Below, in pieces: positions 1 through 64,000 of a DNA stretch of 64,000 nt; position 1 is the first letter of the stretch; every line of letters starts with the position of its first letter. Under the pieces are notes generated by a model, which worked only from the letters and a program-made list of their open reading frames with translations, did not search any database and was not told the origin of the DNA. Source of the DNA: a virus (taxonomy: Duplodnaviria > Caudoviricetes); the IMG/VR virus record IMGVR_UViG_3300021387_000299, positions 64,001-128,000 of that record, one strand, 5' to 3'. The position numbers and the translations under genes are program-made.

Positions 1-1459
1 AATTATTGTTCGCATGATTATACAATTTCTTAATACTTTTTGCTCCAGTATTATTAACATTTAATGTTAAACTACCAACTGTTCCGGTATTTGTATTAGT
101 AAATTTAACAATCATAGTATCACCAACTTGCATTGACGTATAATCCTCACAAGTAACCACTTTTGCTGTCGTAGCTGCTGCTGTTGAACATGTTCCATAA
201 AAAATTCTAGCATTACCATTGTCTACTTGAACTCCGCCAGAACTACTTACAGTTGCCCATGATGGTACTCCATTTGCAAGTGTTAATACTTGTCCATTAC
301 TACCTTTAGCCAATCTTTCTGGAGTTCCAGAAGCACTTCAATATATAATATCACCTGCTGCTGTGCCAATAGATTTAGCAACATAGTCATCTGTAGAAGC
401 TGTTGCCATACTTCCAAATTGACCTAATTTACAGTAAGCCAAATTAGAATTAGAACTATTATATTTACCATTTCAAAAAGCTAATGTATTTATCGTTGGA
501 ATATCTATATCAGTTGCTTTTGCCGTTCAACCTAAATCTCCATTATTAGTTATATTTTTAATAGTTCTTGTGCCAATAGCATTAGTACCATTTCCAATTA
601 ATAATTCACCAGAAGTAAAAGTAGTTGCCCCAGTTCCACCCGCGGCAACAGGAATAGTTCCCGCAGCAAGAACTCCATCGGTAGTTGTATATACGCCCTT
701 ATTAGCAGCCGTTCCAATAGCGCCAGCATTAGTTATATTTCCATGGACATGATTGCCTGCTGCCGCATTTGAAGCTTCTGTGCCAATCGTTAAAATTGTC
801 GGTTTATTTTGAATATAACTTCAATCTAAATTGCCTGTAAATGTCGCTGTATTATTTTGATCTATAGAAATAATAGTTTTTCCAGTTCCAGCATTATTTT
901 TAGCATAAAGTCCTTTATTACCGGTTGCAGAACCAGCAGATCATAAATAAATATCTCCAGCCAAAGCTCTAGCCATAACTTCTTTTTCGCTAGTATTAGT
1001 AGTTGAATTTCCTGCAATAACATGACCACCTGTTACAACATTTCCACCGTCACAATTTAAATTTAAAGCTGCTGTTGTAGTTCCAGTGGCTTTAGCTTGA
1101 ATTTCATTTCCATCTAACTCCAAATGGGCTGCAGTTGCGGCTCCACCAACAATTAAAGCCGGATTATTATTTGCGGTTCCACTAGCATCTTGACTTCTAG
1201 ATAAAACCAGCGTACCAGTAACAGTTCCGCCAGACAATGGCAAATAATTATCATGAGTATGGCTTGTTGTGGCGTAATTAGCAGTATCTAAAGTTCAAGC
1301 ATTTTCCGCGGTCTTTTTTAAAATTCCAGATGTTCCACTTAATTCTTCAATTGCTTTTAAATTATCAGCATCTGTTAAATCATCCAATGGAACATCTCCA
1401 TATATTGTACCAGTGACGCTTAAATCACCAGTTACTATTGTATCTTTCAATTGCGCCAT
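1..1459 (-). CDS. Tail fibre / receptor-binding protein, partial (runs off the left edge); TGA=Trp
   Basis: RBS AAGGAGG, ATG at 1459 (MAQLKDTIVTGDLSVTG). In frame with track ORF 941..1243 and continues through TGA at 941 (IYL-W-SAGS) and 821 (NLD-W-SYIQNKP). Fibre motifs HTH, YLPLSGG and GTCSTAAATTAK. Shares modules with the fibres at 5895..9227 and 9241..13197. Confidence 0.8.
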
Positions 1460-1479
1460 ATATCTGGCACCTCCTTATT

Positions 1480-1572
1480 AAAAAAATAAAGCAAAAAGAT
1501 GGAGATTTTCCAGCAAATATATTCCAATCCATTTTTTAAACTTTTCATCTGGATTCAATCCATCTCTTTGCT
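1480..1572 (-). ncRNA. Candidate structured leader / small RNA ending in a terminator-like U-tract
   Basis: Begins just after a consensus promoter. The 5' arm AGCAAAGAGATGGA (1572-1559) pairs with TCCATCTTTTTGCT (1503-1490), 14 bp with one G-U, and is followed by TTATTTTTTT. Confidence 0.45.
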
Positions 1573-1578
1573 AAATAT

Positions 1579-1608
1579 ATTATATCAAAAAATATTTTTT
1601 GTTGTCAA
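1579..1608 (-). promoter_or_regulatory. sigma70/sigmaA-type promoter
   Basis: TTGACA (1608-1603), 18-nt spacer, TGaTATAAT (-10 at 1584-1579). Perfect consensus with extended -10, intergenic. Confidence 0.8.
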
Positions 1609-1616
1609 AAAAATTT

Positions 1617-3440
1617 TTAGAAAAAATTTGCACCATCAATTTGAACTCAGTCTTCTTCTTGAGGAGAATTGGGTCATGCTTTATTTATATAAACATATGC
1701 AGTTTCCAAATCATCTCCATTATAAATATAAATATTTGATGGAGATTTTCAATGAGCATATAAATTTATTTCAGCCTCTTCTCCTTGATAATCTCAAGTA
1801 TAAACAGTAAGATCTTCAGTTGTAGGTGGATCTGAATAAAATTTTACATTACCTTCATCTAATACTTCTTCAGTTCCAATGCTCGAAGTTGAAGAAAAAT
1901 ATAATCCATCACCAACGGCTTTTGCCGCAGATGGGGTGATCGTGCTATATCAAGCATTATCATATGGTTCATAAACTTTTCTTCCATTATTATCAAAATA
2001 TCCTAAAAATGCTCAACCTTTTGGATGTTTTGGTTGACCTCTATATGCATAAATATATGATCCACCCGTATAAGTCGCACTTTTAGGACCGATGTCAGTA
2101 GTATCATTACCAAAATATCCGCCATTTGCATATAAATTTACCGTTGTTTCAATTTGAGCATATTGAGCTTGAAATGTAAAAACTGTTTCTCCAAACTTAC
2201 CTAAATAATAAGTGTCACCCGTTTGATACATTTTATTATCATTTGTACATTTCCAACCAACAAAACGTTTGCCTGTAGGGGTATAATCTTCAAAATTCGC
2301 AGGTGGAGTAATAATAAAATCAGTTCATTCTGATACGTTATCATTGCCTCTATTAGTAATATTTACTGTTGAGTTATCCCCAAATTGGAAACTAGTAGTA
2401 AAAAAAGTACCTCGAAATGCTCATAAGGCATATAAATGAAGCGATTCTGTTAATCCACCTTTTCATGAAGGAATATTAGGAAGAGGATTAATTACTGTTC
2501 CAGAATTTTCTGTGGCCCATGTGGTTGTAGAAAGAGTTCCAGTAGCTGGCCCGAAAAAGTCAGTATTTTCTACTGCCACAGTAGCATAATTTTGAATACT
2601 GGAATCACTATTTTTTAAATATTCTTCATTATATTGATATAAATCATAAATTTTGACAGCATTTTCAAAAGTTGGAGTAGTATAATATCCTTTAAAAGAT
2701 TTTAATTGATCAGTATTTTCAATTAAAGGAGTTCCTCTAATTCCATATTTAGTTCCGCTATCATCCGGATATGCATGTGCTACAATCTGTAAAGTTTGAT
2801 CATGAGCAAATACTCGGCCATTTCCATCTAAGATAACTACTGGGCCGCTATCTTTTCATTGAGCGGTAAGTGTTAAATTTGCATTAACATTATAGGTATC
2901 TCCTCCAGAATAAGAATGATTATTATTTCCTTGTCAATGATCAAATTCTTTTCCAACTGGCGCAGAAAAGCTAAAAGAATTAATTCCTTTAATTGTATAA
3001 TTTTTATTATATTCTTTACTTTCATTTCTAGAAGATCCTGTTCCAGAACCTGGTTTATATGTAATAGTATAAGTTGAAGCAGGAACGCTAACAGAAGTAC
3101 TATTACTTGCTGTTGGTGCATGTCCTGAGGTTTTTCCACAAGCAATTCTTATGGGGATATCTGCTGCGTTTCCGGCTCCGAGATTTACTGTTCCATTATT
3201 AATAAGAAAGTCTTTTGTTTCATATCCAGAATAATCACTACCGTCTACTGCATCAACAACTCTTGTTCCATTTATTTCTAAATAATATCAAAAAGTACTA
3301 TTCATTCAACGCTGATAATTACTTGCATCAGCATAATATTGTCTAACATAAAAATTTCAATTAATAGTTCTTGCGGAAGCATTAACTGTATAGTCTACAT
3401 ATACGCCACCATTATATTCAAAAGCCGTAAGTGTTGCCAT
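1617..3440 (-). CDS. Putative virion/tail-associated protein with InlB-B-repeat-like segments (607 aa, TGA=Trp)
   Basis: RBS GGGGAGG, ATG 3440, TAA 1617. At least 14 in-frame TGA (3357, 3306, 3288, 2934, 2856, 2463, 2421, 2325, 2013, 1950, 1794, 1749, 1674, 1647), in contexts such as LTLTAQ-W, LYAL-W, LYAH-W and FDH-W. Almost invisible in the standard-code track. Confidence 0.7.
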
Positions 3441-3463: not shown

Positions 3464-5827
3464 TTATTTTTCTATAAATTTATTAGCATAAATTTTTAAA
3501 TCTTTTGCTATTCTAGCCAATCCATAAACGCGTATATATAAATCAATATATCCAGTAGATATATTAGAATTTGGGAAACCCGGTATTTGATTTGTTTGAT
3601 ACACAGTTCAAGAACCTAATGCTCCATATCAATTACCCGAATTAGTATTTGCAATAGACATACGCGTACCAGTAGCTCTTCTTCATAATCCACCCATAGT
3701 GCTATTTGTATATCCAGAAGAAGTGTTATAAGTAACAGTTCCTGGTTTAACATCTTCTCATACAGCATCATTTGGATTTATATTTTGTGTTCAACGATAT
3801 TTTTGTTCTGTTGCGGTAGAGGTTGTTTTTTGTTTAACCATAAATTCATAAGTTGGCATATAAGGTATTTGCTCTACATTATATCATTTATTTTCATTTA
3901 TATAAACACCATGTTCTCAATCTGCGCTTTGCGCAAAATATCCACTTGTAGTGGGATCATTATGATGGAAAATTCTTATTCAAGTACTGCCATCTGGCTC
4001 TTCATAAATATTAGTATCATATTTTATAAATGGGTTCTCAAAAATTTCACCTGTTTTTACTTGTCCGTTTTTATTAATGGAGTTTTCTTGATTTTCTACA
4101 AATTCAAAACCATGAATACCATTTAAATTATCAATATTTGCAGGGGTATTATATAAAGCTAATACATCTTCTGCGGAAAGTGCGGTTGCATAAATTCTAA
4201 AATCTGACATTTCTCCTTTGTATGGGGTATTGTCTCCAGATCGAGTATCTCTACCAATTCTAAATGTAGTAGGAAATGTTAATGTATTATGCGCAGCAGT
4301 CGAAGCTCATTTTTGAGTTCCATTAATATAAACTTTAATATCATTAGAACCATTTTTTACAATACAAATATGTTGCCATACTCCATCAGAAATTGTTGCC
4401 CCAGTACATGTTTCATCTGGAGATCCATTTCATCATAATCTAAGTAAATTTGTAGTAGTTTTTTCTATTGACCATGATATCCCTGGATAGCTTCCAAAGT
4501 AAACAGAACGAACATTATTTTCTCCATTTGGTTTAATTCAAAATGAATATGTAACAGAGCTATTTATTATATTTGAAATATTTAAATGTTCAACTAAAAC
4601 GCCATCATCAATTCCATCAAAGCTAGTAACGACACCATATTTTCCAGAATTTGATGATATCGTAATTGGTAAACTTATTATATTACCATTGTGTTCATAA
4701 CCAGAAGAGTCTTTTATAGTATCTTTAGCATCCCCAAAATACGCCCTAATATTTGAAATAGTGAAAGAAGCACCTTCATTTGAAGTATTTAGTCTTACTC
4801 TTATTCTTGATTGATAAGTTAATGCATATGTAGCTTGTGCGGCAGTAACTTTAAAAGTACCTTTATGATGACCAGAAGGCGTATTTGTTAATGTTGTATA
4901 ATCTATACGATCAGAAGGAGAAACAATGGTTGTATTAAGCTGAGAATATAAATATGAAGTACTTGCGGTTACTCCGGTAACACTGTAATCATATTCTACA
5001 GTAATTGTTGTACCTTCTGTTATAGCATGAGTATATTTAGTATCTATATATCAAAAACCGGTATAAACAGCCGTTGATCCAGAGGCAATTGTAGCTGTTT
5101 TAGAAGCAACTGAAGTGAGAATATTTGGTTGAACTCCTTCATCTAATTTATAATGCAGTATTAATCCCTGACTTATTTCTTTTACTTCTAAAGCAGATAA
5201 ACAATGATCATAAATACGGACATCATTAAGATAGCCATTTAATCTATAATTCCCATGTAGAGCATTACCAGAGGTTCCATTAAAAGATCAAGCAAAAATT
5301 CCAATATAATCTTCTGGAACAGACATTACTCCAATGTTATGAATTCCATCGACCTTTCCATTTACATATAAAGTTGCTATAGATCCATTGTATGTAAATC
5401 CAACATGATATCAAGTATTTGCTGATAATAATGTGCTTCCACAATAAGTATTAAATGTTCTGCTTGAACCTGTACCAGTATTTATAGATAAATATCCTGT
5501 TGTGGTAGATACATGTTTTATTGTAAGTCCCATTCCCGTATTATTTCCATAACGATGTTGAGTAATCATTGCTCCACCTAAATTAGAACCACTTGTTAAA
5601 GAAGTAAATTTTACTCAGCAAAACATTGATTGATTTATACCTAAACCAATAGTTTTTGAAGAAACTAATCCGCCTCCAGTACTTGAATTATTACCATAAC
5701 AACTACCTATTTTTCCATTAGCATTTTCTGTAGTGCTAGTTGTATTTGCCATAGAAAAAGTAATACTTCTATCAGTTCCTATATTTTTAAGATCACCATT
5801 AAGCGGCAACCATATTTTTAATGCCAT
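3464..5827 (-). CDS. LamG/concanavalin-A-like multi-domain putative receptor-binding protein (787 aa, TGA=Trp)
   Basis: Joins track ORFs 5615..5827 and 3980..4210, TAA 3464. LamG-type motifs C-W(TGA)-VK, T-W(TGA)-YHVGFTYNG..LYVNG, NDVRIYDHCLS, SF-W(TGA)-IKP, VW(TGG)QHI and SDFRIYATALS. Confidence 0.8.
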
Positions 5828-5894: not shown

Positions 5895-8800
5895 TTATGC
5901 AAATATAAAATCTAATGATTCTGTTGTTGAATTGTAATGAAGGGTTGCGTTATCAGCCAAAGTAATATCATTTACTTTATCCACATTTCCTGTTTTATCT
6001 ACAGAGAAAATATTCTTTCGAGCTGCGATGCCTCCACCTCCAATAACAAAAGAATGTGGCTTATCTGTAGTATCAGGTTCGTTGCTTTGTCCAATGATAA
6101 AAGTTCTCTTAGTATTAACATTTTTTAAATTGGCACCAAACATTACTACATCATCTTTATTATTAGTGTTATTTAAAAATGATCCATATAAAAAATTACC
6201 TCAACCATTAGTAGCTGAAGGTCCACCATTTCCAAAACAAACATTATACTGTCCTCCAGTTATATTTGCCATGATTCCACCTATATTAAAGTCTCCTAGT
6301 ATGGTTGCACCAGCTATCGCAAAATTTTTTGAAGATGATAACGCTGCTGAAGATAAAGTTGTATCAGTTGTTATTTTAGGATAAGCCCCACTAGTATCTA
6401 CATTAGTAATAGTTGCGCAGAAAGTATGAGTTGTTCTATTTATTACTTTTTTCCCAATTCAAGCCTCAAGTCCAGGATAACTACTAGTTGGTCAATTTTC
6501 CACTGTATAAATTGTTGCATTAGCGGCCCCTGTTAAAGTTATTGGCGTAGTACCAGAAGTAAGAACTAAATTATGACTACCTTCAATATAACCTGTTGAA
6601 CCACTTAATATCAATGAATTTCTTCCGCTAATATAACCATTTCCAAAAGCAATAGAATAATTTCCTGTAACTTCTGTTGGAATATCAATACCTGGTTCTG
6701 AATTTCTATCTAAATACATTGAATTGGTTCCAGTTCCTCTTATAAGAGGTAAATTATTGCCCAATTCAGTTTTTGTTGCATATGTTGAAGTAATGACGTT
6801 GCCATCGCCATCTTTTTCTGCATTACCAATTAAATTACCAGTAAAGGTTGGCGCGGTAACTGTTCCCTTAAATGTAGCATTACCCGTTGTATGATTTAAA
6901 ATAAGTGCATTTACAGAATAAGTTGTTTGCAAAGTAGAGTTTCAATTAGATCTAAGATAAAGATTCCCTCCACTATTTGCTATTTGCCAAGAGGCATTGG
7001 TTCCTCTTCATAATTCAAGTGCTACAGCTTCACCAGCGCCACTATCACTAGAACTAATAATTAATTGAGATGATTTGTTCGTTGTTGTAGCTGCATCTGC
7101 ATCTCTTCCAAGCCAAATATTTTTTGCTACAGCAAAACCTGAAGCAGTTCTTACTCCAGCTGTAGTTGAACCAGTTGCTTTTGTAGTAGGACCAAAATAT
7201 ACATCTCCACCATCATTATTAATGCATAAAGTTGCTGTTGAAGTTCCGTCTGTTTTAGCTTGAATTTCATTTGAATCAAATTCAAGATGTGTGGAAGTGG
7301 GTTGTCCGCCAACAATTAAAGCAGGTCTCCTATCTACAGTACCACTAGCATCTTGAGTTCTGGATAGAATTAAAGTGCCAGTAACAATTCCTCCGCTAAG
7401 AGGTAAGTAATCATGCGTATGATTACCCGCTGCTGCAGTGGTTGAAGTTGTGCCTAAGGTTAAAATAGTTGGTTTATTTTGAATATAGCTTCAATCTAAA
7501 TTACCATATAATGTTACATCATTATTTTGATCTATCTTAAGAATAGATTTGCCTGTTCCATCATGATTCTTTGCATAAATACCCTTATCACCAGTTGCAG
7601 AACTAGCAGATCATAAATAAATAGATCCAGCTAAAGTTCTAGCTATAACATCTTTTTCACTATCGGCGGATTCAGAGCCAGCAATAATACTTCCACCTGC
7701 AGTAATAGTTCCATTTGTAATTAACTTTGCCGGGAATGTCGTATTTAATTCAACATCTCAATCATAAATATGATTTTTTTCAACCATATTATTAGGTGCA
7801 GTTCAAGCACTCATACCATAAAAACGAATATCTGAGACATAAGCCGATCCATAATTTGCATTTATTGCAGTTTGTTTAAATGTTAATCTATATTTATAGT
7901 AATGGTCTGTTTGATTAGTAGTGCCACCAAAATGAGCTTGAGGAAAATATCTAATATTATTATTAGGTCATCCATCAAGTAATTGATTTGTAAATATAGT
8001 AACAAAAGTTTCTTTTGCTGCAATTGTAGAACATTCTAAGTCCATTTTTACCGTATTAGCAGAATCGGACAGTCAAACATAAACAGAATCCATACTAGTA
8101 TATCTGTCTGTTGGTTCAATTGTGACTCTTAATTGATTATTAATATTATTGTTTGCTTTTGCACTAGCTTTTCCTAAATAAAAATTTTTACCTTTTGTTT
8201 CAGAAAATAACGCTACTTTTTCAGCATTTGTTGCGCCATAATCTGTTCAAGTATTGCCACCATCAGTAGAATATTCTACAGTAATAGCTTCTGCTGGCAA
8301 ATTAAAAGTTTTATTACTTGCCGCACTTCCAACTAATGGTCGTGTAATGTGATCTAAACTACCATGTCTAGCATCTGTATCTTTTCCAATTTCCAAACGG
8401 CTATGGGTATGATTAACTGTTGCATATGTTGAAGTGATAATATTACCATCGCCATCTTTACCGGCTTTTAAATCAGCAGTTGCAATTTTAACTGGTTCAC
8501 CATTTGTATTAAAATAAACAGCTTCAGAACTAGACCCCTTAGAAGCTCAAAGTGGTGCATAAGTATGATCTCCAGCTGTATTATTATAAATAATTCAGGT
8601 TGATTTAGTTCTATCATAAAGTCCTCTATTAGTAGAAGCTAAAATAGAAACAGTTCCATTATCATTAACAGCTTTTATTTCAGCGCCATTAGTTCCACTT
8701 GCAGTAGTTATTAAATTATGTGTACTTGGATTATAAGTCAATCCAGATAATTTATTAACACTACCAGTTTCTTCATTGGCGTTGGCCGATAACCCACCCA

Positions 8801-9227
8801 ACAAATTAAAAGAACCATTTGTTGTAATTGCTGCATTTTGATGAATTGAATATTCATTATAATCAGTTATGACTCAATTAGTACCGTCATAAATAAATAA
8901 TATAACTGCGCCAGCCCTCCAGGCGGTTCCGCTAGCATTTCCAGCTTTAGTTGAACCATAAGCCATAATTGACTTAGCAGCAATAAGATTTGTTGTATTT
9001 GCATTTCTTTGTATTGTTAAAGTTGGATTAGCTACTGTATTACCATTAGTAAATTTTACCGCTAATAACATTCCAGTTATTAAAGTTGCAGAATCTGGTG
9101 TGGCATCAGCCAATTTAACTATTTTAGCAGCTGTACCTGCAGCTGTAGTACAAGTGCCATAAAAAGTTGAAGTAACTAAATGGGTTCCACCCCCAGCAGT
9201 TACTTTTCCTATAACTCCATTTGCCAT
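5895..9227 (-). CDS. Tail fibre protein (1110 aa, TGA=Trp)
   Basis: Track ORFs 8874..9227, 8595..8804, 6492..6932 and 5895..6143 share one frame and are joined at TGA (e.g. YDGTN-W-VI). Gly/Thr-rich, with HTH, YLPLSGG and DGDGNIITSTYAT motifs. RBS AGGAGG, ends TAA. Confidence 0.8.
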
Positions 9228-9240: not shown

Positions 9241-12200
9241 TTAATTTATCGCTCCAGTAGCAACTGTAGTATTTGTTACTGAAATATTTGGAATTGTTCT
9301 TGATGTATGTTGCAATGTAGCTGCAGTTCCTGGTGTAACATTAACACTATCTCCAGTAGATAATGTTAAAACACCACTAGCATAACTAGCGCTAGTTACA
9401 ACGGTTTTTTCTTCTACTACAGTTGGAGTATTTGGTATCCAGTCTGTAATGTCATCTGCTGATATTGCCGTTCCTGCACTCGCACTACCAATAGAAGTAG
9501 TTACTAGTGATCCAGTTGTTCCTGCCGTCACATGACCAAATTTATCTGTTGTAATTGTTCTAATTAATTTACCTGCATTATTAGTTCCACCATTATAAGT
9601 TGTGGCTGATGCTCCTTCTGATGATGCATGTGTAATAGTTCGAGTTCCTGATGTAGTTATTGCTGATGTGCTATCAACAGTAATACCTTCACCGCCCTTA
9701 ATTGTAATACTTGTAACAGTACCAGTATTTGTAGTATAACCTTGATTAACAGCGCCAGTTACTCTACCATATTTATCAACAGTAATTCCTTGATAAGTTC
9801 CTGCAGTTACAGCTGATGTCGGGAATCTTTCTACTGCTACGGTACCAGAAGCCAAATTTGAAGCATTTAAACTAGTTAAACTTGCACCGTTACCAGCAAA
9901 TGAAGTTGCCGTTAGCTTTCCTGCGGTTGTATCAAGATAAACCCCAGTATCTGCAACCGCCGTGACGCCTTGCGCAGTTGATGTTGGAGTTGTTGAAGTT
10001 CCAAGTAAATATGCTTTTGTTGTTGTAGCAAGAGTTACATTTACTTTTGTATCACTATTAGTTACAGTTTCTGTGCCTGTTGTGTATCCAGTAATATGAC
10101 CATAATCATCAGTAGTAATAGTTTGTAAATATGTTCTTCCGGTTGAACCTTTAGATCCAGCAGAGGCTCCAGAAGGTACTGTATGTGCGACACTTAAATT
10201 TCCACTACTATCACTAGTTACACCTATTACGTTAGCGCCACTAATTTTATGTGCGCTTCTAACAGCCCCATTTTCAATTATATTATAATAAACATTTCCA
10301 TTAGTTAATGCAGATGTTGTTTGTGAAGTTTTCGTAGCTGAATTAGTTACAATACCTTTTGCTTGATGATGAGTATCAGTAACTGTTTCTGTTCCTGTTG
10401 TATAACCAGTTACATGCCCAAATTGATCTGTTGTAATGGTTTGGATATAAGTTCTACCAGTAGTTCCTTTTGTGCTTGCGGAAGCACCAGAAGGAACAGC
10501 ATGGGCAATTGTTCTTGATCCAGAAGTAGTAATAGCTGTTCCAGAATTTGAAATAGTAATACCATCTCCTTGGTCTAGTGTTACGCTAGTAACTGTACCA
10601 GTATTTTTAGTATATCCAGCATAATATAAAGTTCTTGCTGTAATTAGATTAGTGTCAGTAGAAGTTACCGCTTTTGATGCGCTATTATCTGTAATACCAA
10701 CAGATAAAGCACCTGTGATATGACCTTGATCATCAAATTTTATTTTATATAAGTCTTCTGTTGTAATAGCAGTTATACTATTACTATGGCCTATTGTTAT
10801 ATTCCCTGAAGTTCCACCGCCAGTTAATCCAGCTCCAGCAGTAACTCCTGTAATCGTACCTACATTAGAAGTTTTACTAGCCGCTAAATCATATGCTTTT
10901 TTAACTGCATTTGCGGTTGCTGCCAATGATGTAGATGTACTGTTGATCGCATCCGATAATTTCGTTGTGCCATAAACTCCAGTTGTAGCAGTTCCAATAG
11001 AAGCAGATGAACTTGTTTTTCCTCCTACGCTAATGGTGAATTGTGGCGCTGCTGACGAAGTTCCACCGGTCATATTAATTGTAGGATTGATATTTACCGC
11101 TTTAACCTTTCCTACAGTCCCATCAGCTAATAGCATGTATCCATCGGTAAATGTATTAATGCCTTTAAATAATCCATTATCTAAATTGGTTTGAACAACT
11201 ATTCAGTCGCTATCTTCTGCGGTTGCGCCACTTCCCTTTTCATGAACGCAAATTAATAAATCGCCTGTTTCACATATTTTTCCTACATAAGTACCAGTTG
11301 TTTCTATTTTATAAGTTCATCCAGCATCATATGGAGGATTAGGAATATCAGTTTGTGATGTAATAGTTCCTTTAAATATCATGGCATCATTTAATGCCAA
11401 TAAGTCATTTAATTCTGCTTTTGTCGCATAGGTTGAAGTAATTGTATTTCCTTCACTATCTTTTCCAGCTTGAATATCGGCTACAGATGTTTGACCTGTA
11501 CCGCCTCTTGCAACTGAAAGGGTTCCAGAGGTAACTTGACTTGCCGCAATAGCAATATTACCAAAGGTTGCAGAAACCTTTCCATTTGTTTGACTAAAAG
11601 CTGTTAATGTTTTTGCCGCACTTGGAGTACCAGATATTGTTCCATCTAAGGTATTAATAGCTGTTCATACTCCTTTTGGAGTTGCCGCAAGTCCTTCTTC
11701 AGTGGTACTGCTTGTATTAGATAATTTAGTTACACCATAAACACCAGTAGTAGCGGTATTTAAAGATTGCGCTGTTCCACTGTTGCCAGCAACAGTCACA
11801 TTAATTTTCGGCGCACCTGAATTATCTCCAGAAGTAACTGTAATACTAGGATTAAATAAAGCTCTGCTTACAGCAATTTTACCATTACTTTCTGAAACTG
11901 CTGATACATATTTGGTACTGTCTGCACTGTCTGAAATATTTAAAGTATTAATTGCATTGGTGACTGCAGTGTTAACACCTTTCGGAGTTGCAGCTAGACC
12001 TTCTTCAGTAGAGCTTACTGTGCTAGAAAGTTTTGTTGCACCATAAACTCCGGTTGTAGCGGTATTCATTGTTGATTCAGTACTAGTTTTACCTCCAACT
12101 GAAATTTTAAATTTTGGCGCTACAGATGAGGTTCCAGCAGTTAAAGTTAATGCAGGATTAATAGCAACTGATTTAACCTTTCCATCAGTGCCATCTGCGA

Positions 12201-37240: not shown

Positions 37241-37255
37241 AACTTTTACCTCCAA

Positions 37256-52820: not shown

Positions 52821-53945
52821 CTAGTCATCATGGTTATCAGATGACATGCTTACTAATTCATCTGAATATGTTTCACCATCATGCCATGTACGACCACGAT
52901 GTAGGTCATTATTAGCATCAGAAGCTGTTGTAGCACTCTCAATAATCTGAATAACAGCAAATACTTTATGACTCTTATCGAATCTTGTGTAGTCTGGGAA
53001 TGCATCCATTGTAAATGTAAATGTTGATGGATCACCAGTAGCAGCCATAGTAAATGTAAATGCTGACTGAATCTTACAGTTAGGAATGATAAATTCAGCT
53101 GGATGGTCTACACCATTTGTATCTCTCCAAAGTGTTGAACCTTCAAGATAATATGTACCAGCGAATTTTTCAGCATCAATTTCAATCTGTTTAGCGCCAG
53201 AACGAACTGGTGTATAGTAATCAATTAAAACACCATTACCAATACCAGCATCAACAGCAAGATTTGTCTTACCATCATCACCTTTACCGACGCCAATTTC
53301 ATACATATGATTCATATCAGTATCATGGCAATTTAATTCTTTTCCAAAATTACATTCATGACTTTCAACAACCATCTTATATGAACCATCTTCTTGAGGT
53401 TCAATTTTTGCATAAGTCTTTGAAGCTGCATCAAATGCAGAACCTGTCTGCTGATTAACAATATAAGGTTCAGAAATAACTTCACCATCTTTTGTGATCA
53501 TAATGCAAGCGTAATTTTCATTTTCAACTGCGCCATTAGCTGTTGGAACAGGTAAGAAAGGTTCTTTATCTACGAAAACAGTTAAAGTCTTTCCATCTTC
53601 ACTAACAGTATATTCATCTGTTGTTTCAACAATATGCTGATAAATAGGCTTATCTTCAGAAGCTTCAATTAAACCAGCACCAGTTAAAACTGATAAACTT
53701 TCTGGAGAAATCAATGCATCTTCCATAGTGAAAGTAACTGTACGTTCACCTTCCCACGCCATTAAACGAGCATTACCTTTACCACCCTGCGCATAAACAG
53801 TTGTAGAAGCACCCTCTAATGTTGAAGTAGTCAGTGTGTCGAAATATAATACTGGTTCATTCTTATAGAAACGCTTGTTTCCCAAATTCATTGTACCCTT
53901 GGCTCTAAGTACAACGTCAACTACGTCACGAACACCATATTTCAT
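52821..53945 (-). CDS. Major tail (tube) protein (374 aa)
   Basis: Motifs LYFDTL..S.LE.....YAQGGKGN.RL..W and F.IPNCKIQS.FTFTMAA.GDPSTF.F. Acidic, no TGA, located between the neck genes and the TMP. Confidence 0.8.
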   Translation of the reverse strand: MKYGVRDVVDVVLRAKGTMNLGNKRFYKNEPVLYFDTLTTSTLEGASTTVYAQGGKGNARLMAWEGERTVTFTMEDALISPESLSVLTGAGLIEASEDKPIYQHIVETTDEYTVSEDGKTLTVFVDKEPFLPVPTANGAVENENYACIMITKDGEVISEPYIVNQQTGSAFDAASKTYAKIEPQEDGSYKMVVESHECNFGKELNCHDTDMNHMYEIGVGKGDDGKTNLAVDAGIGNGVLIDYYTPVRSGAKQIEIDAEKFAGTYYLEGSTLWRDTNGVDHPAEFIIPNCKIQSAFTFTMAATGDPSTFTFTMDAFPDYTRFDKSHKVFAVIQIIESATTASDANNDLHRGRTWHDGETYSDELVSMSSDNHDD

Positions 53946-55300: not shown

Positions 55301-56293
55301 TTAAAATAAAGATTCTGCAACAATAGTTTTTTCAGCATCGCCGCATTTTAATACAAACTGACCATGATAACTTGATTGTCAGCTAATAACACATTTACGA
55401 CCGTCTGCTTTCATTTGAACAGGAACTTTCTTTCCTATAATCTTCCATTGTGCAAGATCTTTTCCTCTATAGTAATAAGTATATTCAATTCTTGGTTTAA
55501 TAAAAGTATCTCCTTTAATTAAATCATCGAGTGTAGAATCTGCGTTTGGATCAATCGGATCCATTACAAGACCATCTACCAAATAATTATTAACGTCATC
55601 TTTAGTCTCATTTGCATAATATTCTACAGCTACAACTTGTAAAATTCCAGGCATACTAATACTATCAGTTGCTTCAACTCTTCAGCAAATATTCTTATCA
55701 GCCTCATCAATACCCTTTAAATAAAACTTTGCATAACGTCTAAAATATTTTAATGCTTCGGGTGTTTTAGTCATAAGAATATCTAAAGAGTGATTCGGTT
55801 CATCTACACTTATACCATTCTTTTGAATAAAATTAATCTTAGTTTCTACTGGACCTCTTACCGCAAGATATTGGGTAAACTTCTCTTTATCTTCATTTAA
55901 CCAAGATACAGTATAATTACAACGTCTAATTTCTGCTCTAAAATAAGCAAGTTCAGTTAAATCTTGTAAATAAATTATTCATTTAGTTCCAGTATTTAAT
56001 CAATCAAAAATGTCTCCCGGTTTATAGCGATACTCATATCCAACAGAGAGAACTTTATCATCATAATTTTGTTTTGTCTTATCCGGATTAATTAACGCTG
56101 GTGCTTGTTCTTGATCTACCGCATCAGTATGTTTAATTTTTGCCGCTTGATAAGAGTATTTTGTTGCATGATCTAATGTTCATCTTTTATCGCGAATCAT
56201 TCGATCTTGTTGCGGTTTTCCGCCATGCCAATTTATTCTATTTGCCATTAAATTTATTCCAGAAAATTGAGATCTATCAGTACTATATGGCAT
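55301..56293 (-). CDS. Putative head-closure/neck protein (330 aa, TGA=Trp)
   Basis: ATG 56293 (MPYSTDRSQF) after AAGGGGG. Several TGAs; includes track ORF 55379..55654; TAA 55301. Confidence 0.55.
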
Positions 56294-56588: not shown

Positions 56589-57162
56589 CAAAGATTCCAT
56601 TTCTTAGCACATCCCAATTTGACTCAATATAGCCATCGCTATTTATTCGTCTACGCTTATAAAGGCGTTGCATATGGAATGATTGTCTCTGACATTCTGC
56701 TAATAAATTTAATAATTTGGCAAGATGATTGGCTTGGGAGGTCATTTTAAAATCAGACCCACTATATTTCATGCGGGTATTTTCAATAGATGTAACTTGG
56801 CGTTGAAGCCATCCGCACATCATTAATAATGCAAGAATATTAATCTCTTCACTCGTTAAATCTACATTAAAATGCGAGCGTTCAATATATACATCAGGAA
56901 TTCCCTCATCTTCCTCTTCATCTGGAGTGTTTCAAACAACTCCAATAACAAAATCCCCTTCTTCAACCTTATCTTCTCGAACAATAAGAGTTTCAATAGA
57001 AAAGTCGTCTAAAATTTTACGAGGGAATTCAAATCCAGGAATTGCATCAATTAAAAGGGACCTTAAGTCCCTCATTGTGTCTTCTGGAGTTAACTCCATG
57101 TACATATCATCTGTGATTTTACCAAGAAAGCGATTATATATATCTGTGAACTGAGTTCCCAT
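56566..57162 (-). CDS. Putative head-tail adaptor (198 aa)
   Basis: ATG 57162 after AAGGAG. One TGA at 56932 joins two track ORFs. F.DIYNRFL.KITD and DLTSEEINILA..M...WL motifs. Confidence 0.6.
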
Positions 57163-57186
57163 AATATACACTCCTTTCTTATTTAA

Positions 57187-57765
57187 TTATTTCTTAATAA
57201 TCTTAGGTTTATTTGCGGCGACTGCTTCTGCTGCAACCCCTCCAGCTGATCTACGTGTAGTTGTCTGAACTCTACGAGTCTTTGGAGCCTCTGCCGCAGG
57301 TGCTTCACCGTCATCATTAGCTCTATTTTCTCTATCATGAGCAATTGCTGCATCAACATCAAATCCTGTCATTTCCTTAAGAGCCTGTCTCTTAGAAAAA
57401 TCATTTAAAGGAATCTGGACGCTTAAATCTTTAATCATATCTTTAACACCATCTGGCGCAAAATCAAGAGCATCCTTAAATTCGTTTAAAGTACCCTCTC
57501 TAATAAGCTTAGCGACATTATCAGCATTCATATAATACTCAGGTTCTCTATGAATATTTAAATCATCTAAAACCTGTTCGTCTTTAACCAAGAGGTGGTT
57601 TCTGATTAAGTCAAGTCCGCCAGCTGTATATGATAAAGCTTCAATTTCCTCTTTTGGAACTCTGATAGCCTGTCTAGGAGCTAATTCTCTGCGAATATGT
57701 CTATCGGGAATTTGATAAACAATTTTTCCAGCTGTTCTATTTTCAACTGTTACTAAATCTGCCAT
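57187..57765 (-). CDS. Hypothetical head-associated protein (192 aa)
   Basis: Intact ORF downstream of the capsid unit; ATG 57765 after AAGGAG. Confidence 0.7.
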   Translation of the reverse strand: MADLVTVENRTAGKIVYQIPDRHIRRELAPRQAIRVPKEEIEALSYTAGGLDLIRNHLLVKDEQVLDDLNIHREPEYYMNADNVAKLIREGTLNEFKDALDFAPDGVKDMIKDLSVQIPLNDFSKRQALKEMTGFDVDAAIAHDRENRANDDGEAPAAEAPKTRRVQTTTRRSAGGVAAEAVAANKPKIIKK

Positions 57766-57798
57766 ATTGTAATAATCTCCTTTTTCTCTCACTTAATG

Positions 57799-57835
57799 AA
57801 AATAAGGGGAGAGGGGATTTACCCCTACTCCCCTT
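57799..57835 (-). terminator. Intrinsic terminator closing the capsid unit
   Basis: AAGGGGAGTAGGGG-TAAAT-CCCCTCTCCCCTT followed by ATTTT. Confidence 0.75.
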
Positions 57836-57849
57836 TAACTCTTAAATAT

Positions 57850-58260
57850 TTAGTTTTCTTTAAATGTTACTGTTAATGTAACACTTTCGCCCTTAGCACC
57901 AATTGTAATTGTTGCTGGTGTTGTGGCAATTGTTTCTGCCTTAGTCCAGAATACAATATGTCCTGCTCCAAGGCCTAATCCAGCTGCTTCCTCTACGTCA
58001 GCATCTGTTAATTCAGCACCATTCCATGTAGCACCAACGATTGTCTCAAGACCTGTATTAATATCTAATCCAATCCACTTATGCTCTCCTTGAGCCGCAT
58101 TAGAAGATGGGAATGTAACTAAGTCTTCAAGTTTACCTTTGATGACAATGGAAGTACCACTTTGTTCAACCTCAACGGCCCCATTATTGACTACCATGCT
58201 ATCATAGCTGGCGTCCCATGATGGAAGAGTGGCCAACTTACTAACCGTTGTTGTTACTAC
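57850..58260 (-). CDS. Beta-rich (Ig-like) domain, probably a -1 frameshift extension of the major capsid protein
   Basis: The track start is a TTG with no SD. The frame is open back across the capsid stop: GCA GGG GTA GTA ACA ACA ACG GTT AGT AAG TTG GCC. Confidence 0.65.
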   Translation of the reverse strand, partial: VVTTTVSKLATLPSWDASYDSMVVNNGAVEVEQSGTSIVIKGKLEDLVTFPSSNAAQGEHKWIGLDINTGLETIVGATWNGAELTDADVEEAAGLGLGAGHIVFWTKAETIATTPATITIGAKGESVTLTVTFKEN

Positions 58261-59408
58261 CCCTGCTGGCCGTTACCGCCTTGATTGTCGCCTGCACCTT
58301 CGCTACCGCTTTGGAAATCAGATGCATTGTCAACAACGACAACGTTCTTAACTGTATCAGCAAGCTGGAATGAACCTTCCTTAGATAATGAAGTATCCTT
58401 ATAAACGCACATTGCATTGTTCATCATGCAAACTACGCCGACCTTCTTATATACCTGGATCTCACGGCTCCAGTCACGATTAGCTCTTTCGTCAACAAGT
58501 GTATCGCCTTCGAAAGCAACCTTAACTGGCTTCATATCTGTGCCTGATGGGATAATCCAGCAGAATGAAGGATCAATAACCTTTTCCTTACCTTCAATAA
58601 TGTCCTTATAAGCGTTAGGAAGAATGACAACATTCTTATCTCTATATCCGCTTAAACGACCTGTTCTGTAAAGTTCATCCTTCATAGCTTCTGTGTATCT
58701 CCAAGCTTCTTGAGGAATCATCTTAACAGCAAATTCGTTAGTGCAGTAAATTGTTACATTACCATATGATTCAGCAAGGCGAACAAGTTCGTCAAATGAA
58801 GCTGCATCAAATCCGTTTGTAACAACGCGGTTCATTGCAGGAAGCTGGTTAATAGCACCTTCAAGAGCCTTACCAATTTCTTCGTAAACAAGGTCATCCA
58901 TACCTTCCATTACGATATTTGTAAGTTCAGCAAAGTCAGCACGACCATCAAGGAATTCCTCAAATCCGATCTGTGCAGCTCCGCCAATTGCACTTGTTGG
59001 AACTTCGAAGCTTTCAGAACTCTTAGCAAGCTTGAAGACTTCATAGTTACCTGCAAGTCCAACTCTTGTAATGAACTGCTTAGCACGATTAGTGCCATCA
59101 ATCTTTCTACGGAACATAGGTCTGTCGCCCTGCGCAAATGTCTTTACTTCTGCGAACTGACCATAGTTCTGAACGACTCTCTTAGGAAGAACATCATTCA
59201 ATGTTTCTTCAATAATAGAGAATACTAAATTCTTATTTTCACGATATAACTGGTATGTTCCAGCAATCTCTCTGAACTCATTACGAAGTGTTTCGTTAAG
59301 TTCATTATAGCTGAAATCCTGTCCATTATAGCTATACGCCTTAGGAGCTTTAGGATCAGCTTTAGCTACAGTCTTAGCTAATGCAATAAAATTCTTCTTA
59401 TCTAACAT
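58257..59408 (-). CDS. Major capsid protein (383 aa)
   Basis: Size and position after protease/scaffold and decoration genes. Strongly biased codon usage (AAG, TTC, AAC). Gly/Gln-rich flexible C-terminus; ends TAG TAA. Confidence 0.85.
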   Translation of the reverse strand: MLDKKNFIALAKTVAKADPKAPKAYSYNGQDFSYNELNETLRNEFREIAGTYQLYRENKNLVFSIIEETLNDVLPKRVVQNYGQFAEVKTFAQGDRPMFRRKIDGTNRAKQFITRVGLAGNYEVFKLAKSSESFEVPTSAIGGAAQIGFEEFLDGRADFAELTNIVMEGMDDLVYEEIGKALEGAINQLPAMNRVVTNGFDAASFDELVRLAESYGNVTIYCTNEFAVKMIPQEAWRYTEAMKDELYRTGRLSGYRDKNVVILPNAYKDIIEGKEKVIDPSFCWIIPSGTDMKPVKVAFEGDTLVDERANRDWSREIQVYKKVGVVCMMNNAMCVYKDTSLSKEGSFQLADTVKNVVVVDNASDFQSGSEGAGDNQGGNGQQG

Positions 59409-59427
59409 TTCCTTACTCCTTTCTTAA

Positions 59428-60153
59428 TTATTTAACGCGCATAACTTTTACGCCAGGCTGCATATCAGGCATTGTGTAAACCTTAACAACCTGCATTGTT
59501 GGGTGAAGAGCGTCTGCGCCTTCGCCCGGTGCAAGATAACCATCAGCGCCAGGTGTAAGCATATCGCCAACCTTTAGGCTACCTGGTTCAGCAGCAATTG
59601 TATTTGTTGTCCAAATATCGCCAATATTAATCTTGAAAAGACGAGGAACCATTCTTGTTCCCTGTGGCATTAACTTATGCTTCTTGTAGTTTTCAACTAC
59701 ATGGAATGGATCATCTGTAGAATCTACTTCATAAGGAGAAGCTGGCTTTGTAACACGTTCAACATTGTCATTGCCATCTCCATCTTTAGCTCCGTAGAAA
59801 CGAGCCTGCCATTCTGTTAAAGGCTGTGTTCCATCAATTGGACTATAAACACGAGCAACATAATCTTCTTTCTTCATAGCAAAATCGCAGTCCTGTTCCC
59901 AGTCACGATAAAGCTTGATTTCATTAAAGACCATCATCCATTCGCCTTTGCCTTCAAAGTCTACTGCTCCGCCATCATCAGCTGCATAGTTATATGTAGC
60001 AAACTGTCCATTCTCAAGAATGTCAATATCTGCTGCTGCAGGTAACTGAGCATAGATCTGAGCAGTCTTCTGGGCAGATAGATGGTTTGGTTCAACCTGA
60101 CCATAACCACGAGCGACATATGTGGCCTTTTCACTTAATCTTTCTCTAGCCAT
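59428..60153 (-). CDS. Putative capsid decoration/cement protein (241 aa)
   Basis: Between scaffold and MCP with the same high-expression codon bias. GYGQVEPN.L and LENG motifs. Confidence 0.6.
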   Translation of the reverse strand: MARERLSEKATYVARGYGQVEPNHLSAQKTAQIYAQLPAAADIDILENGQFATYNYAADDGGAVDFEGKGEWMMVFNEIKLYRDWEQDCDFAMKKEDYVARVYSPIDGTQPLTEWQARFYGAKDGDGNDNVERVTKPASPYEVDSTDDPFHVVENYKKHKLMPQGTRMVPRLFKINIGDIWTTNTIAAEPGSLKVGDMLTPGADGYLAPGEGADALHPTMQVVKVYTMPDMQPGVKVMRVK

Positions 60154-60170
60154 TTACTGTCTTCCTCCTA

Positions 60171-61451
60171 TTATTCCATCTCTCTTTTCGTAGCCATAGC
60201 AGCTTTGATCCAAGCCGGTATCATATCATCTTCAATTCCCTGTTCATCTAAACTGAAAACTGTGTTACCATTTTGCTCTTCATCTTTTTCTTCATCAAGA
60301 TCAAAACTAACCTTGTTACGAACACAAATTACAGAAAGCTTCGCTTCGATATCATCAATACTGTAGTTGTCAATATTCTTAACTACATCCTGCTTATCTT
60401 CATCAGATAGCATGTAGAAACTATCAATCATTGCCTGCTTTTCTTTACGATCGGCCGCATTCTTAAATTCTACAAGTTTATCATAATCAGCTTTCATATT
60501 GTTGAACTTAGTTTCTAACTCTTCATAGTCAGCCTTTAGTTCTATATATTCTTGAATATCATCAAGATTATATTTAACGCTTTCGTCCTCAGAATTTTCT
60601 TCAGGTTGCTCGTCTTCCTGAACTTCTTCTTCGGTTTCAGCAGGAGCTTCTTCTGCTTCTTCTTCTGGAGTTTCTTCAACTTCAGGTTCTGCAGGAGCTT
60701 CTTCTTCTGGTTTTTCTTCTTCGTTATCTAAAACTTCTTCTTCCATTTCTGGTGTCTTTACTTCTTCCACAGAATCTGTCCCTCCTTTTATTTCCATCTC
60801 TTTAACTTCTTTCATCATAGATAAAATCTTTTCCTGGAAAGAAGGTTCAAATGAGAATTGCACTCTGGTGATTTGCGCACCCTCGAAGCAAGGTTCAACA
60901 TCCTCACCAAGAATACAAAGTTTAGAGATTATTGCTTCATTTATAATGAAAAAGCTCAAATTTTCATTATCATTTTCTGACCAAAAACCTTTTAAAGTAG
61001 ATTCATCTAATTCCATAGATTGATTATTACCCTTGGTAATAACTCTTTGAGTTTCTGGATATTGGCCTGTTCATAAATATCCTTCTGTCATCAAATATTC
61101 ATGTTCAACGCCATCATCAGAAAATTTTTGAAACCACACCTTTGGATTTAAATCAACAAATCCATAAGGCTGTGTAGTATCTTTAAAGAACCAATCTCCA
61201 TTGCGAATATCAATGCTTTGATTATGTGCCTCAAAGTCCTCAGTGTTTTCGTTATAATATCCCACAATTGGACAGCCCGGTAAAGTTTTTGCCATATCTG
61301 TGGCAACAGCTTTAGTAATAACGCTACCATTACGATTAGGGCTATCTCCTACATAACATACCTTAATTTGGCATTTTGAAATAAGAGGATTTAATGTTGG
61401 TGTAACATTGATAAGCTCAATAGGAGAATCTACTGCTATACTATTATGCAT
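60171..61451 (-). CDS. Prohead protease / scaffold fusion (426 aa, one TGA)
   Basis: Two track ORFs joined at LMTEGYL-W(61071)-TGQY. Motifs NRNGS.I, PIVG, QSMEL and LCILG.DVEPCFEGA, then an acidic linker and coiled coil. Confidence 0.8.
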
Positions 61452-61464
61452 TATCTAACTCCTC

Positions 61465-63108
61465 CTATTTCATACTCTCTCTATTTGCAATTGTTTTGTC
61501 GGATAATTGATCATCATCCTTTTTAGGACGACCTGCTTGTTTTGATTCTCCACCTACCGCAGATCCTCCTCCTGTAGAAGTTTGCGAATTACCACTATTT
61601 GTTTTATTTTTTCTGCCCAAATTTTGAATATCTTCACTACCAATAGTAGATGACATCATAGGCGGAATCATAATTTCACTTAATCCTAAAATATCATTTT
61701 CGAAATAAGCGGTGCTCATGATTGTATTTTGAGAGTGTCCAAGAGCAATCTGCGCAAACATCTTACCATAACCAATTTGCATTTGTTCTTTATACATTTT
61801 TGATAATTCTTTATAATTATATTGTGTAGTATCTAATATGTAAAATCTAAAATTATATTTCTTCTTATTCTTGACTTTTCTCTGTACTATTGTATCAAAT
61901 AAAATCTCAAATTGCAACTTTAAGTCCCTCATGACGCCCTCATCTTGCAAAATCGAATTGGTCTGTGCAAGATTTCCATCCGAGTTAAATATATTTTTAG
62001 ATACGCCGGCCGCATTATATACAGTACGTTCAACTCTCTCTAAATCGTCATTATCAACATTTCTTGCATCCGATAAATCAATAGAATCAATATCCGCGAA
62101 TGTTGTAATAATATCTGTTCCAACAGAATGTTGTAACATCGCAACAGCATTATTATGAATATCTCTTGCTTCATCAACATCGAAAATTAAATCACCATTT
62201 TTATCTATTGGAAGTTTCTGCACAATAATTTTTAACAGATCTTGCATCTGTTTGCGGCGATCAAGATCCTGCGCGGCATCAAGATCAAGTAATGCTGGAA
62301 TTACGTTAAAGAATAATGGTAGATCTCCAGCTCCACTTAAACTAAATTTAACTGCATATCCAGGATCTAATAAGTATCATGTGCCAATATCTCCTTGGAA
62401 ATCTGGTTGCAATCTTCTTTCTTTATATAGCATATATCCTTTTTGGAAATCTTTAGGGAACATTTTAAGAACTCGCATTCTATAATTAATGTCCTTAAAT
62501 TTTTCATCAAAATATGCCATATTAAATTCAATAGCAGGAAGATTATTTATATAATATCTGCAACGGCAATATTCTGGAGGTAACTCTTGGAATAACACTC
62601 CATTCGTTCCTTCAATAATATAGCCATAGCATACTCCATATTTAAGAACCTTTAACGCAATATCACCGCATAATTTCTTAATATGAGTATTATCTAAATA
62701 ATCTAAATTTTTAAAAAATTCATTAGTAATTTTTAAACAGTCTTTTTCACTGTCCAAAACAGATTCATCATAGATTGTTGGAACGGTATACCAGTCCCAA
62801 CGATACATTGTTGCATAGTAATTAACAAGTCTTTGATAAATACCGTCTATTCTATAGAAATAATCTGAAATCATTCTAATTGAATGATAATCTCTGTCTA
62901 TAATGGCACGCATTACAGCACGTTTATCAATACATCTTCGACCATCTATTTTTTTATAAAATCCTAAATCTATAATAGCATCTTCAAGAGTTTTTATACC
63001 TACTTTAATTTTCCCATAGTCAGCGGCGCCATTCATATCAAAGCCTTTATCTCTAATGGCCTCTTGTCTATCCTTGTTTTCCAAAAGCTCCACCTCCTTA
63101 GCTTCCAT
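61465..63108 (-). CDS. Portal protein (~540 aa, one TGA; may start at TTG 63084)
   Basis: Two track ORFs joined at GDIGT-W(62377)-YLLDP. Lies between terminase and protease. C-terminal GRPKK...SDKT motif. Confidence 0.8.
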
Positions 63109-63457
63109 ATGCTTTATTAATTATGTAATCGTAACTAATAAGATTTTCGTCAGTATATGGAATTTCTATTAATTTAATATCATGTAATTGACAAAATCTA
63201 CGTTTTTTCGCATCATTAAATTGCTGCTGATAAAATCCTTTTTTTCCACCAAATTTACTACTTGGTTCATAATGTTGTCTGCCTTGATATTCAATTAAAA
63301 AATCTATATTACCGTCATCATCAAAGACCGCAAAATCAAAACGAAGAGGTCTACCATTTGAACTATTTAATCCTTCAAATGATAATTCCATCTTAAAATT
63401 TAATCCCGCTTCTTTTAAAATTTCTTCTATTTTAATTTCTCCTCTACTTGCTCTCAT
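63098..63457 (-). CDS. Small Vsr/DUF559-like PD-(D/E)xK endonuclease (119 aa)
   Basis: S.GE..I...L, LRFDF, LIEYQGRQHY, D..K..FC...I.LIEIPY pattern. Confidence 0.75.
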   Translation of the reverse strand: MRASRGEIKIEEILKEAGLNFKMELSFEGLNSSNGRPLRFDFAVFDDDGNIDFLIEYQGRQHYEPSSKFGGKKGFYQQQFNDAKKRRFCQLHDIKLIEIPYTDENLISYDYIINKAYGS

Positions 63458-63467
63458 ATTAATTCTC

Positions 63468-64000
63468 CTATCCTATATGTGAACTAAATCGTCATTCAGC
63501 AGCATTAAATTTCTTTTTCTTTTTTCGTTTACTGTCTTCAACTTGTTTTATATAATATAATCCATATTCAAATGCTGAAAATTTATCTTTCTTAATTCCA
63601 CGATTAGCTTGTTTTAAAATAATATTAACACCTTCATTTTCTTCACGAAGATTTAACATCTCTTCTTTTAATATAGAAGTTAATGTATATGGTTTTAAGT
63701 AATCTGCCCTTTCTTCTGGAGTCATTTGTTTTCCTTTAGATGTTCCTAATAATTTTGTTTTAGCAATTCTTTCATCAATTAAAAATTTAATTCGTCCAGA
63801 AATAAGTTGCGTTTGAACATTAGAATGTGCTTCAGTATTGATAGGTGCATTTGCTTTCATTAAATACATTGCATCTTGTTCTGTGCGAGGTGTTCTAAAT
63901 TTTTTATATTGTTGTTCAATATCTGGGGTAGTTCCACCAATAACGCCAAAATCTGGATATTCATCTCCAGTAATAGGGTCAACTTGTGATTTGACCATAA
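63468..64000 (-). CDS. terL: Terminase large subunit, C-terminal nuclease portion (partial)
   Basis: L.EEMLNL...KKDKFSAFEYGLYY C-terminal motif, upstream of the portal. Extends through TGA 63492 to AAE-W-RFSSHIG-TAG. Confidence 0.75.

Follow-up and report, generated by a model that had tools for sequence, protein, structure and literature searches.

The 64,000 nucleotides analyzed here (the window; bases 64001-128000 of the single 177,819-bp contig of IMG/VR record IMGVR_UViG_3300021387_000299, classed as a virus record) belong to a phage of about 178 kb, and across the genes of this window the codon TGA is used as a sense codon that, by comparison with homologous genes, stands for tryptophan. 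The explanation that we favor, with a probability of roughly 0.85, is a code switch driven by the phage itself in a host with the standard genetic code: two codes would be used in one genome, with a phage-encoded tRNA(UCA) of the Trp type serving as the switch.

When translated with table 11, the window yields 57 open reading frames (ORFs) of at least 100 amino acids (aa), many of them fragmentary. With TGA taken as sense, the fragments join into 34 tightly packed genes, and all real genes of the window lie on the minus strand. These 34 genes (20,835 codons) contain 171 in-frame TGA codons, 94 TGG codons and not a single in-frame TAA or TAG, set against 1,246 and 1,707 TAA plus TAG codons when this DNA is read in its two alternative frames. 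Genes end in TAA (26) or TAG (seven), the remaining one being cut by the window edge. When TGA is read as sense, ORF coverage of the whole genome rises from 0.59 (table 11) to 0.81, and that of the 10-kb bins over the late block goes from 0.36-0.81 to 0.93-0.99; reading TAG as sense brings no comparable gain in genome ORF coverage. The lack of in-frame TAA and TAG, the counts in the other frames, the way in which the genes end, and the gain in coverage together confirm that the in-frame TGA pattern is real and far above chance.

This pattern had been proposed in a sequence-only reading of the window, which described minus-strand ORF fragments ending in TGA and resuming in the same frame and genes ending throughout in TAA or TAG once reconstructed, and which suggested comparing coding density between codes; the pattern is borne out by the numbers given above, including the lack of in-frame TAA and TAG inside the merged genes. 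Its assembly of a 2800-aa tape-measure protein from 11 fragments and of a 2405-aa protein from nine is right with respect to the merging. The numbers are too low, since short fragments were left uncounted (the true TGA breaks are 22 and 17), and the argument is unaffected by this. The portal protein and the putative protease are indeed each split once, by one TGA, and the likeness to proteases covers the N-terminal half of a 426-aa protein. Likewise, the comparison of two LamG copies within one gene (window 3464-5827) is correct: both are Laminin_G_3 domains, the first with TGA in the Trp slot (N-T-w-Y-H-V, codon 139) and the second with TGG at the equivalent position (V-W-Q-H-I, codon 484).

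Could the TGA codons nevertheless be real stops, resulting from pseudogenes or assembly errors, or be edited to TGG in the mRNA? Nothing speaks for this beyond the reading by table 11 itself, and we consider it vanishingly improbable. In-frame TAA or TAG codons are absent, compared with more than 1,200 in each other frame, and the TGA positions are kept in 36 related loci from many samples. Assembly errors are contradicted by the source DNA run, which shows 0 differences. In two studies, RNA-library contigs carry the letters of the DNA unchanged across TGA-bearing genes, so that there is no sign of editing.

The residue encoded by TGA was assessed with 79 related loci, taken from IMG/VR via the portal protein, and two whole related genomes. 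Query genes were translated with X at TGA, thereby avoiding a bias toward Trp, and searched by tblastn with table 11; the subject codon beneath each query codon was then recorded. Among the 1,536 cells below a query TGA, which stem from 79 loci, 794 hold TGG (52%) and 269 hold TGA (18%), and the next codons, AAA, TTT and TAT, each stay below 3%. The profile is the same beneath TGG codons of the phage (55% TGG, 9% TGA, followed by Tyr and Phe codons), and beneath the control codons TCA, GGA and TGT lie codons for Ser, Gly and Cys, respectively. Many TGA columns are composed purely of TGG and TGA. At codon 244 of the portal gene, for instance, the relatives carry 72 TGG and seven TGA codons, and the residue is an invariant W in a 10-sequence alignment; at TGA codon 127 of the 426-aa protein, the corresponding counts are 70 and seven. 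In the alignment with the unrecoded relative G004, which covers 56 TGA sites, TGG is present at 20 and no other codon occurs more than four times. Tryptophan makes up 0.51% of the late block if TGG alone is counted and 1.33% if TGA is included, the latter next to 1.16% by TGG alone in the replication block.

Gly and Ser are not enriched at the TGA columns: no codon for either residue exceeds 2%, and GGT accounts for 1.3% of the cells. Columns of TGG and TGA without such enrichment support the assignment of TGA to Trp at the codon level. The earlier claim of TGA-to-Trp recoding thus agrees with the alignments, in which 70% of the cells at TGA sites hold TGG or TGA as they do at the phage's own TGG codons, and the homologous columns, which were expected to be Gly or unconserved if the claim was wrong, are neither. 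That TGA specifies another residue, be it Gly (code 25, as in Absconditabacteria and Gracilibacteria hosts), Ser, or selenocysteine (Sec) or Cys, is in our estimate highly improbable. Phages using code 25 do exist; yet the columns at TGA show no enrichment of GGN, TCN/AGY or TGY codons, whereas the control codons match their own synonyms, and 171 sites in the window are far too many for Sec.

Across the genome, the use of TGA differs with gene class. The minus-strand block at 58.5-131.7 kb of the genome holds 191 TGA and 118 TGG codons, and about 60-65% of the late-gene tryptophans are written as TGA. The plus-strand block at 20-57 kb is without any genuine in-frame TGA, and its tryptophans are encoded by TGG only. 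TGA-free replication genes comprise those for both topoisomerase II subunits, the NAD-dependent ligase, the DNA polymerase, the anaerobic ribonucleotide reductase (NrdD), a RecJ-like nuclease, the DnaB helicase and a Dda-like helicase. All TGA-bearing genes outside the late block have late-type functions:

Genome 13.8-19.9 kb: leucine-rich repeat (LRR) and tail-fiber-like proteins, TGA-bearing.
Genome 26132-26677 (L109:17132-17677), plus strand: endolysin-like ORF (phrog_15001) with five in-frame TGA and two TGG codons, alone amid TGA-free replication genes.
Genome 56793-57311: RuvC resolvase, TGA-bearing.

As the endolysin-like ORF is recoded in the midst of replication genes, recoding tracks gene function and not genome position.

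In the early genes at genome positions 135067-135420, 135809-136066, 146537-146980 and 163318-164067, TGA stands as the stop codon exactly where relatives have TAA, a match seen in five relatives for the first of these genes. A fifth early gene (genome 133297-133797) ends in TGA as well, and its relatives terminate within 1-4 codons. Judged from these alignments, at least four early genes truly terminate at TGA. A gene for an HNH homing endonuclease in the replication block (genome 22374-22952; L109:13374-13952, plus strand) also ends in TGA and is followed by two TGA and one TAA within five codons.

The genome encodes 29 tRNAs, one of which has the anticodon UCA. Its gene is part of a lysis region:

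Genome c[58412-58506] (L001:513-607), minus strand: suppressor tRNA(UCA), 95 nucleotides (nt), 5,495-5,589 bases before window position 1.
Genome 57989-58390: holin (phrog_13712).
Genome 59562-60293: endolysin with choline-binding/cell-wall-binding repeats, just upstream, TGA-recoded.

The suspicion that a suppressor tRNA is encoded outside the window was therefore correct; the gene lies 5.5 kb before it and its product is Trp-like. This tRNA scores 62 bits against the Rfam tRNA model and has a 7-bp acceptor stem, a 4-bp D stem, the anticodon loop CUUCAAA, a G73 discriminator and an encoded CCA end; we take its body to resemble bacterial tRNA-Trp and not tRNA-Sec. A residue other than Trp could find some backing here, in that ARAGORN labels the molecule 'SeC' and in that its 25-nt variable region and G73 are like those of class II Ser/Sec tRNAs. 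However, the 7-bp acceptor and 4-bp D stems are unlike the 8/5 geometry of Sec, and the extra arm differs from those of Ser tRNAs by its anticodon-like loop of 7 nt.

The tRNA(UCA) gene is flanked by a small Hsp20-like gene and the holin gene. Together with two small ORFs, the tRNA and holin genes form a cassette whose ORFs are all TGA-free and which is bracketed by a sigma-70-like promoter candidate (TTGACT-17-TATAAT, 11/12 match) and a strong terminator. Directly 5' of the tRNA gene lies a hairpin, GTAGAG...CTCTAC (genome ~58510-58540; L001, minus strand), which is kept in the related phage G001 (L095 ~16705-16745) despite the differing tRNAs of the two phages and may be a processing or attenuation signal. 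Searches of the 178-kb genome for the release factors RF1 and RF2 (PF00472) and for tryptophanyl-tRNA synthetase (TrpRS; PF00579, a class Ib synthetase) gave no match, while the controls were detected. A BLAST search with tRNA(UCA) against five related phage records returned T-arm fragments only, and the holin has one homologue in these five records, with no adjoining tRNA. The other 28 tRNA genes are clustered at both contig ends (genome 175-8256 and 170453-174379); they include a normal tRNA-Trp(CCA) (genome 4485-4560), and a DUF2828/DUF7788 protein (phrog_850, RNA-binding; genome 9813-11366) adjoins a tRNA cluster.

The 25-nt variable region of tRNA(UCA) folds into a hairpin with a stem of 5 bp and the 7-nt loop GUCCAUA, where U-CCA is placed as an anticodon would be. 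IMG/VR was scanned with the pattern of a tRNA(UCA) anticodon arm followed by a long variable region, which gave 74 loci with 57 distinct inserts, or 58 distinct long-arm tRNA(UCA) sequences when the phage's own insert is added. UCCA is present in 34 of the 58. When these inserts are anchored on UCCA alone, the five flanking bases on each side pair in 94% of the cells, as opposed to 56% in shuffles and 27-52% when the anchor is slid, and compensatory changes occur in all five stem pairs of the 34 arms. Twelve of the UCCA arms have exactly the loop CUCCAAA, the usual anticodon loop of tRNA-Trp. Sequence and pairing show the extra arm to be a conserved replica of the Trp (CCA) anticodon arm, and its likeliest purpose would be to keep the tRNA recognizable to TrpRS. 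Whether it lets the host TrpRS, a reader of the CCA anticodon, accept a tRNA with UCA, so that no phage TrpRS would be needed, is a tentative proposition to which we would give slightly less than even odds. Around the other two-arm tRNAs, the coding gain under code 4 is mixed (9 of 25 loci) because such tRNAs often sit among early genes. A search of the literature found no paper on tRNAs that carry two anticodon arms or on suppressor tRNAs interrupted by a group I intron.

The latter feature occurs in phage G001, which is TGA-recoded and whose portal protein is 85% identical. At the syntenic site (L095:16747-17015, plus strand), located by genome alignment and intron-aware ARAGORN, G001 has a different tRNA(UCA) that lacks the extra arm and whose anticodon loop is split by a compact group I intron of ~180 nt with conserved AGACUA and GAAGAUAUAGUC elements. 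The intron scores 22.7 bits against the Rfam family Intron_gpI (E 7e-4), which is below the gathering score; an Rfam search of 801 bases at E<=1 missed it and a narrower search detected it. Applied to whole genomes with a low threshold, intron-aware ARAGORN produced false calls by the hundreds, which were discarded. Since the tRNA(UCA) of G001 does without the arm, the arm is not indispensable and would act to enhance the switch, not as a necessity for it. Self-splicing of the suppressor tRNA may add a further control of timing in G001. In the unrecoded G004, a tRNA-like remnant (~119185-119290) has a D arm 95% identical to that of the suppressor tRNA and an aberrant anticodon region, and is not called by ARAGORN.

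Two origins of the recoding had been envisaged from the sequence of the window, a switch during infection of a standard-code host and a host whose own code is code 4. The second, in which the phage would simply share the native code of, for instance, a Mycoplasma-type Mollicute, is compatible with TGA being aligned as Trp, with the low GC content of the genome (34%) and with the binning of some relatives in metagenome-assembled genomes (MAGs) labeled Tenericutes or Anaeroplasmatales. Moreover, most cultured code-4 phages infect Mycoplasma or Spiroplasma (PMC11210395). Nevertheless, we regard it as quite unlikely. A code-4 host at 34% GC would favor TGA throughout, whereas the early and replication genes are without real in-frame TGA and write Trp as TGG; at least four early genes have TGA where relatives stop at TAA, and the tRNA(UCA) is supplied by the phage itself. 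In a native Mollicute code-4 phage, TGA would be Trp in all gene classes and never a stop, which is not what we find. The endolysin carries cell-wall-binding repeats, and code-4 Mollicutes are wall-less. Sister phages in the portal family are TAG-recoded or unrecoded, the family comprising 36 TGA-recoded, 34 TAG-recoded and five unrecoded loci. The same set of observations (early TGA stops, TGG-only early Trp, tRNA(UCA), a wall-binding endolysin and a portal family of mixed codes) favors the first of the two origins, the phage-driven switch in a standard-code host.

The closest cultured relatives are large siphoviruses of Bacillus, Enterococcus, Lactococcus, Staphylococcus, Brevibacillus and Clostridioides, and Bacillota are the hosts of all cultured relatives. 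Most probably, the host is a walled bacterium of the Bacillota with the standard code. A search with the endolysin in 185,579 species genomes gave no relative that would point to the host, and no spacer-like exact match was seen. One MAG, G008 (JAEEHF01, 'Bacillota bacterium Tb.RUG.116', a species representative; it includes L190), contains at least seven contigs of several phage relatives with 64-90% nucleotide identity; being loaded with contigs of different phage relatives, its binning is not evidence for a host.

A phage-driven switch lends itself to the following scenario, whose order of events is suggested by the functions of the genes. Host RNA polymerase and ribosomes would express the standard-code genes first. 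The tRNA(UCA) would be made from its TGA-free cassette by way of its own promoter and terminator and, as it accumulates, would be charged with Trp by the host TrpRS. In competition with host RF2, UGA would then be read as Trp, and the virion proteins, the endolysin and the resolvase would be completed in full.

Several points weigh against this explanation and have to be kept in mind. The reading of UGA as Trp rests on codon and sequence comparisons and not on the protein level, and the terms 'early' and 'late' are derived from gene function and not from expression data. The tRNA(UCA) has a class-II-like long variable region and G73, features used by SerRS; consequently, its charging with Trp rests on the codon evidence and not on the tRNA alone. 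No gene for RF1, RF2 or TrpRS with which host RF2 might be outcompeted was detected in the phage, and as the genome is estimated to be 95% complete, a further factor may lie in the missing part. Relatives detected by the portal profile are found only in MAG bins with mixed labels, Tenericutes and Anaeroplasmatales included, which carries no weight either way.

TGA-to-Trp recoding had been noted by the sequence-only reading as already known from gut phages, and this is the case in the study by Borges et al., of which a published version reportedly appeared in 2022 in Nat Microbiol. The preprint describes recoding in structural and lysis genes, replication genes that keep the standard code, suppressor tRNAs close to the lysis cassette, predicted Firmicutes hosts, and an 'Agate' clade of large phages (154 +/- 27 kb) from animal guts including cattle with code 11, 4 and 15 members (10.1101/2021.08.26.457843). 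The phage studied here represents the same phenomenon and is not new in kind: with the code-4 and Agate phages it shares recoded structural and lysis genes, standard-code replication genes, a tRNA(UCA) by the lysis genes, low GC, the rarity of TGA as a stop, a large genome, a ruminant gut habitat and mixed codes in its family. Membership in the Agate clade would agree with size, habitat and mixed codes; the large terminase, the protein on which the tree of Borges et al. is built, is encoded at genome 127468-129252. Unlike the Jade phages, the phage has no match to an RF1/TrpRS 'code change module' beside the tRNA. An extra CCA hairpin in the suppressor tRNA finds no mention in the available portion of the preprint, and our data add individual early genes that end in TGA where relatives use TAA.

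With phAss-1 of the proposed Phassvirus, a gut phage of ~136 kb with recoded late genes and suppressor tRNAs (OQ749652; PMC10607447), the phage shares the portal family (34% identity) and a head protein (50% identity). Unlike our phage, phAss-1 recodes TAG (NCBI 'code 15 clade') and not TGA. Phages of Mycoplasma and Spiroplasma likewise read TGA as Trp; they do so in all genes with the host doing the decoding, whereas here late-type genes only are affected, early genes stop at TGA and the lysis enzyme targets a wall. TAG-to-Gln crAss-like and Lak phages resemble our phage in that a phage suppressor tRNA has to act before their late genes can be read, and for crAss-like phages this has been validated by metaproteomics (PMC9523058; Borges et al.). 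They differ in the stop codon, the amino acid, the phage lineage and the host phylum (Bacteroidota).

The virus is a ruminant gut phage, and its DNA recurs in bovine and goat gut metagenomes from several studies. The window covers its virion module, with portal, head, tape-measure, tail-tip, tail-fiber and Laminin_G_3 proteins and several very large proteins without a family. Its principal genes, all on the minus strand, are as follows (window coordinates):

2-1459, minus: 3' part of a 707-aa late gene (genome 63336-65459), six in-frame TGA within the window.
1617-3440, minus: 607-aa late protein, 14 TGA and two TGG.
3464-5827, minus: 787-aa protein with two Laminin_G_3 domains, 16 TGA and three TGG.
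5895-9227, minus: 1110-aa late protein, 15 TGA.
9241-13227, minus: 1328-aa tail-fiber protein with Phage_fiber_2 repeats, six TGA.
16622-23839, minus: 2405-aa protein with a weak BspA-type LRR match, 17 TGA and 14 TGG.
25728-26606, minus: 292-aa protein with a phage tail tip domain, two TGA.
26703-30845, minus: 1380-aa late protein, 14 TGA.
31179-34220, minus: 1013-aa late protein, 15 TGA, aligning in part with the unrecoded relative G004.
34232-37255, minus: 1007-aa late protein, five TGA.
37456-41829, minus: 1457-aa late protein, 20 TGA.
41939-50341, minus: 2800-aa tape-measure protein with a PhageMin_Tail domain, 22 TGA and six TGG.
52821-53945, minus: 374-aa virion structural protein (phrog_2729), 0 TGA.
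55301-56293, minus: 330-aa head-module protein, five TGA, three of the five TGA columns being nearly pure TGG/TGA in ~59 relatives.
58257-59408, minus: 383-aa head protein (phrog_4088), by position the probable major capsid protein, 0 TGA.
60171-61451, minus: 426-aa protein, similar over its N-terminal half to annotated prohead proteases of Bacillus phages, one TGA.
61465-63108, minus: portal protein, 547 aa (phrog_2739), one TGA (codon 244, window 62377-62379).

A PDB sequence search with three head or virion proteins and a megablast of 14 kb against GenBank phages gave no match. The probable most abundant virion proteins, namely the 383-aa head protein, its 241-aa neighbor and the 374-aa structural protein (window 52821-53945 and 57187-60153, minus strand), are encoded without any TGA, as would fit highly expressed genes that avoid a codon read by suppression. 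Contig depth, a weak measure, peaks at 57.1-60.5 kb in two RNA libraries, and DNA depth is flat.

The window is unreadable under table 11 and needs TGA as Trp, an assignment that other parts of the same genome must not be given. Having two codes in one genome, such a phage will be misread in one half or the other by gene callers that apply a single code. It provides a clean example of one codon used in two senses, with evidence from homologues for both. The suppressor tRNA, which carries a copy of the Trp anticodon arm within itself, could inform our understanding of tRNA identity and serve genetic-code engineering. With TGA-recoded, TAG-recoded and unrecoded members side by side, the phage family is a good system for studying how genetic codes change.

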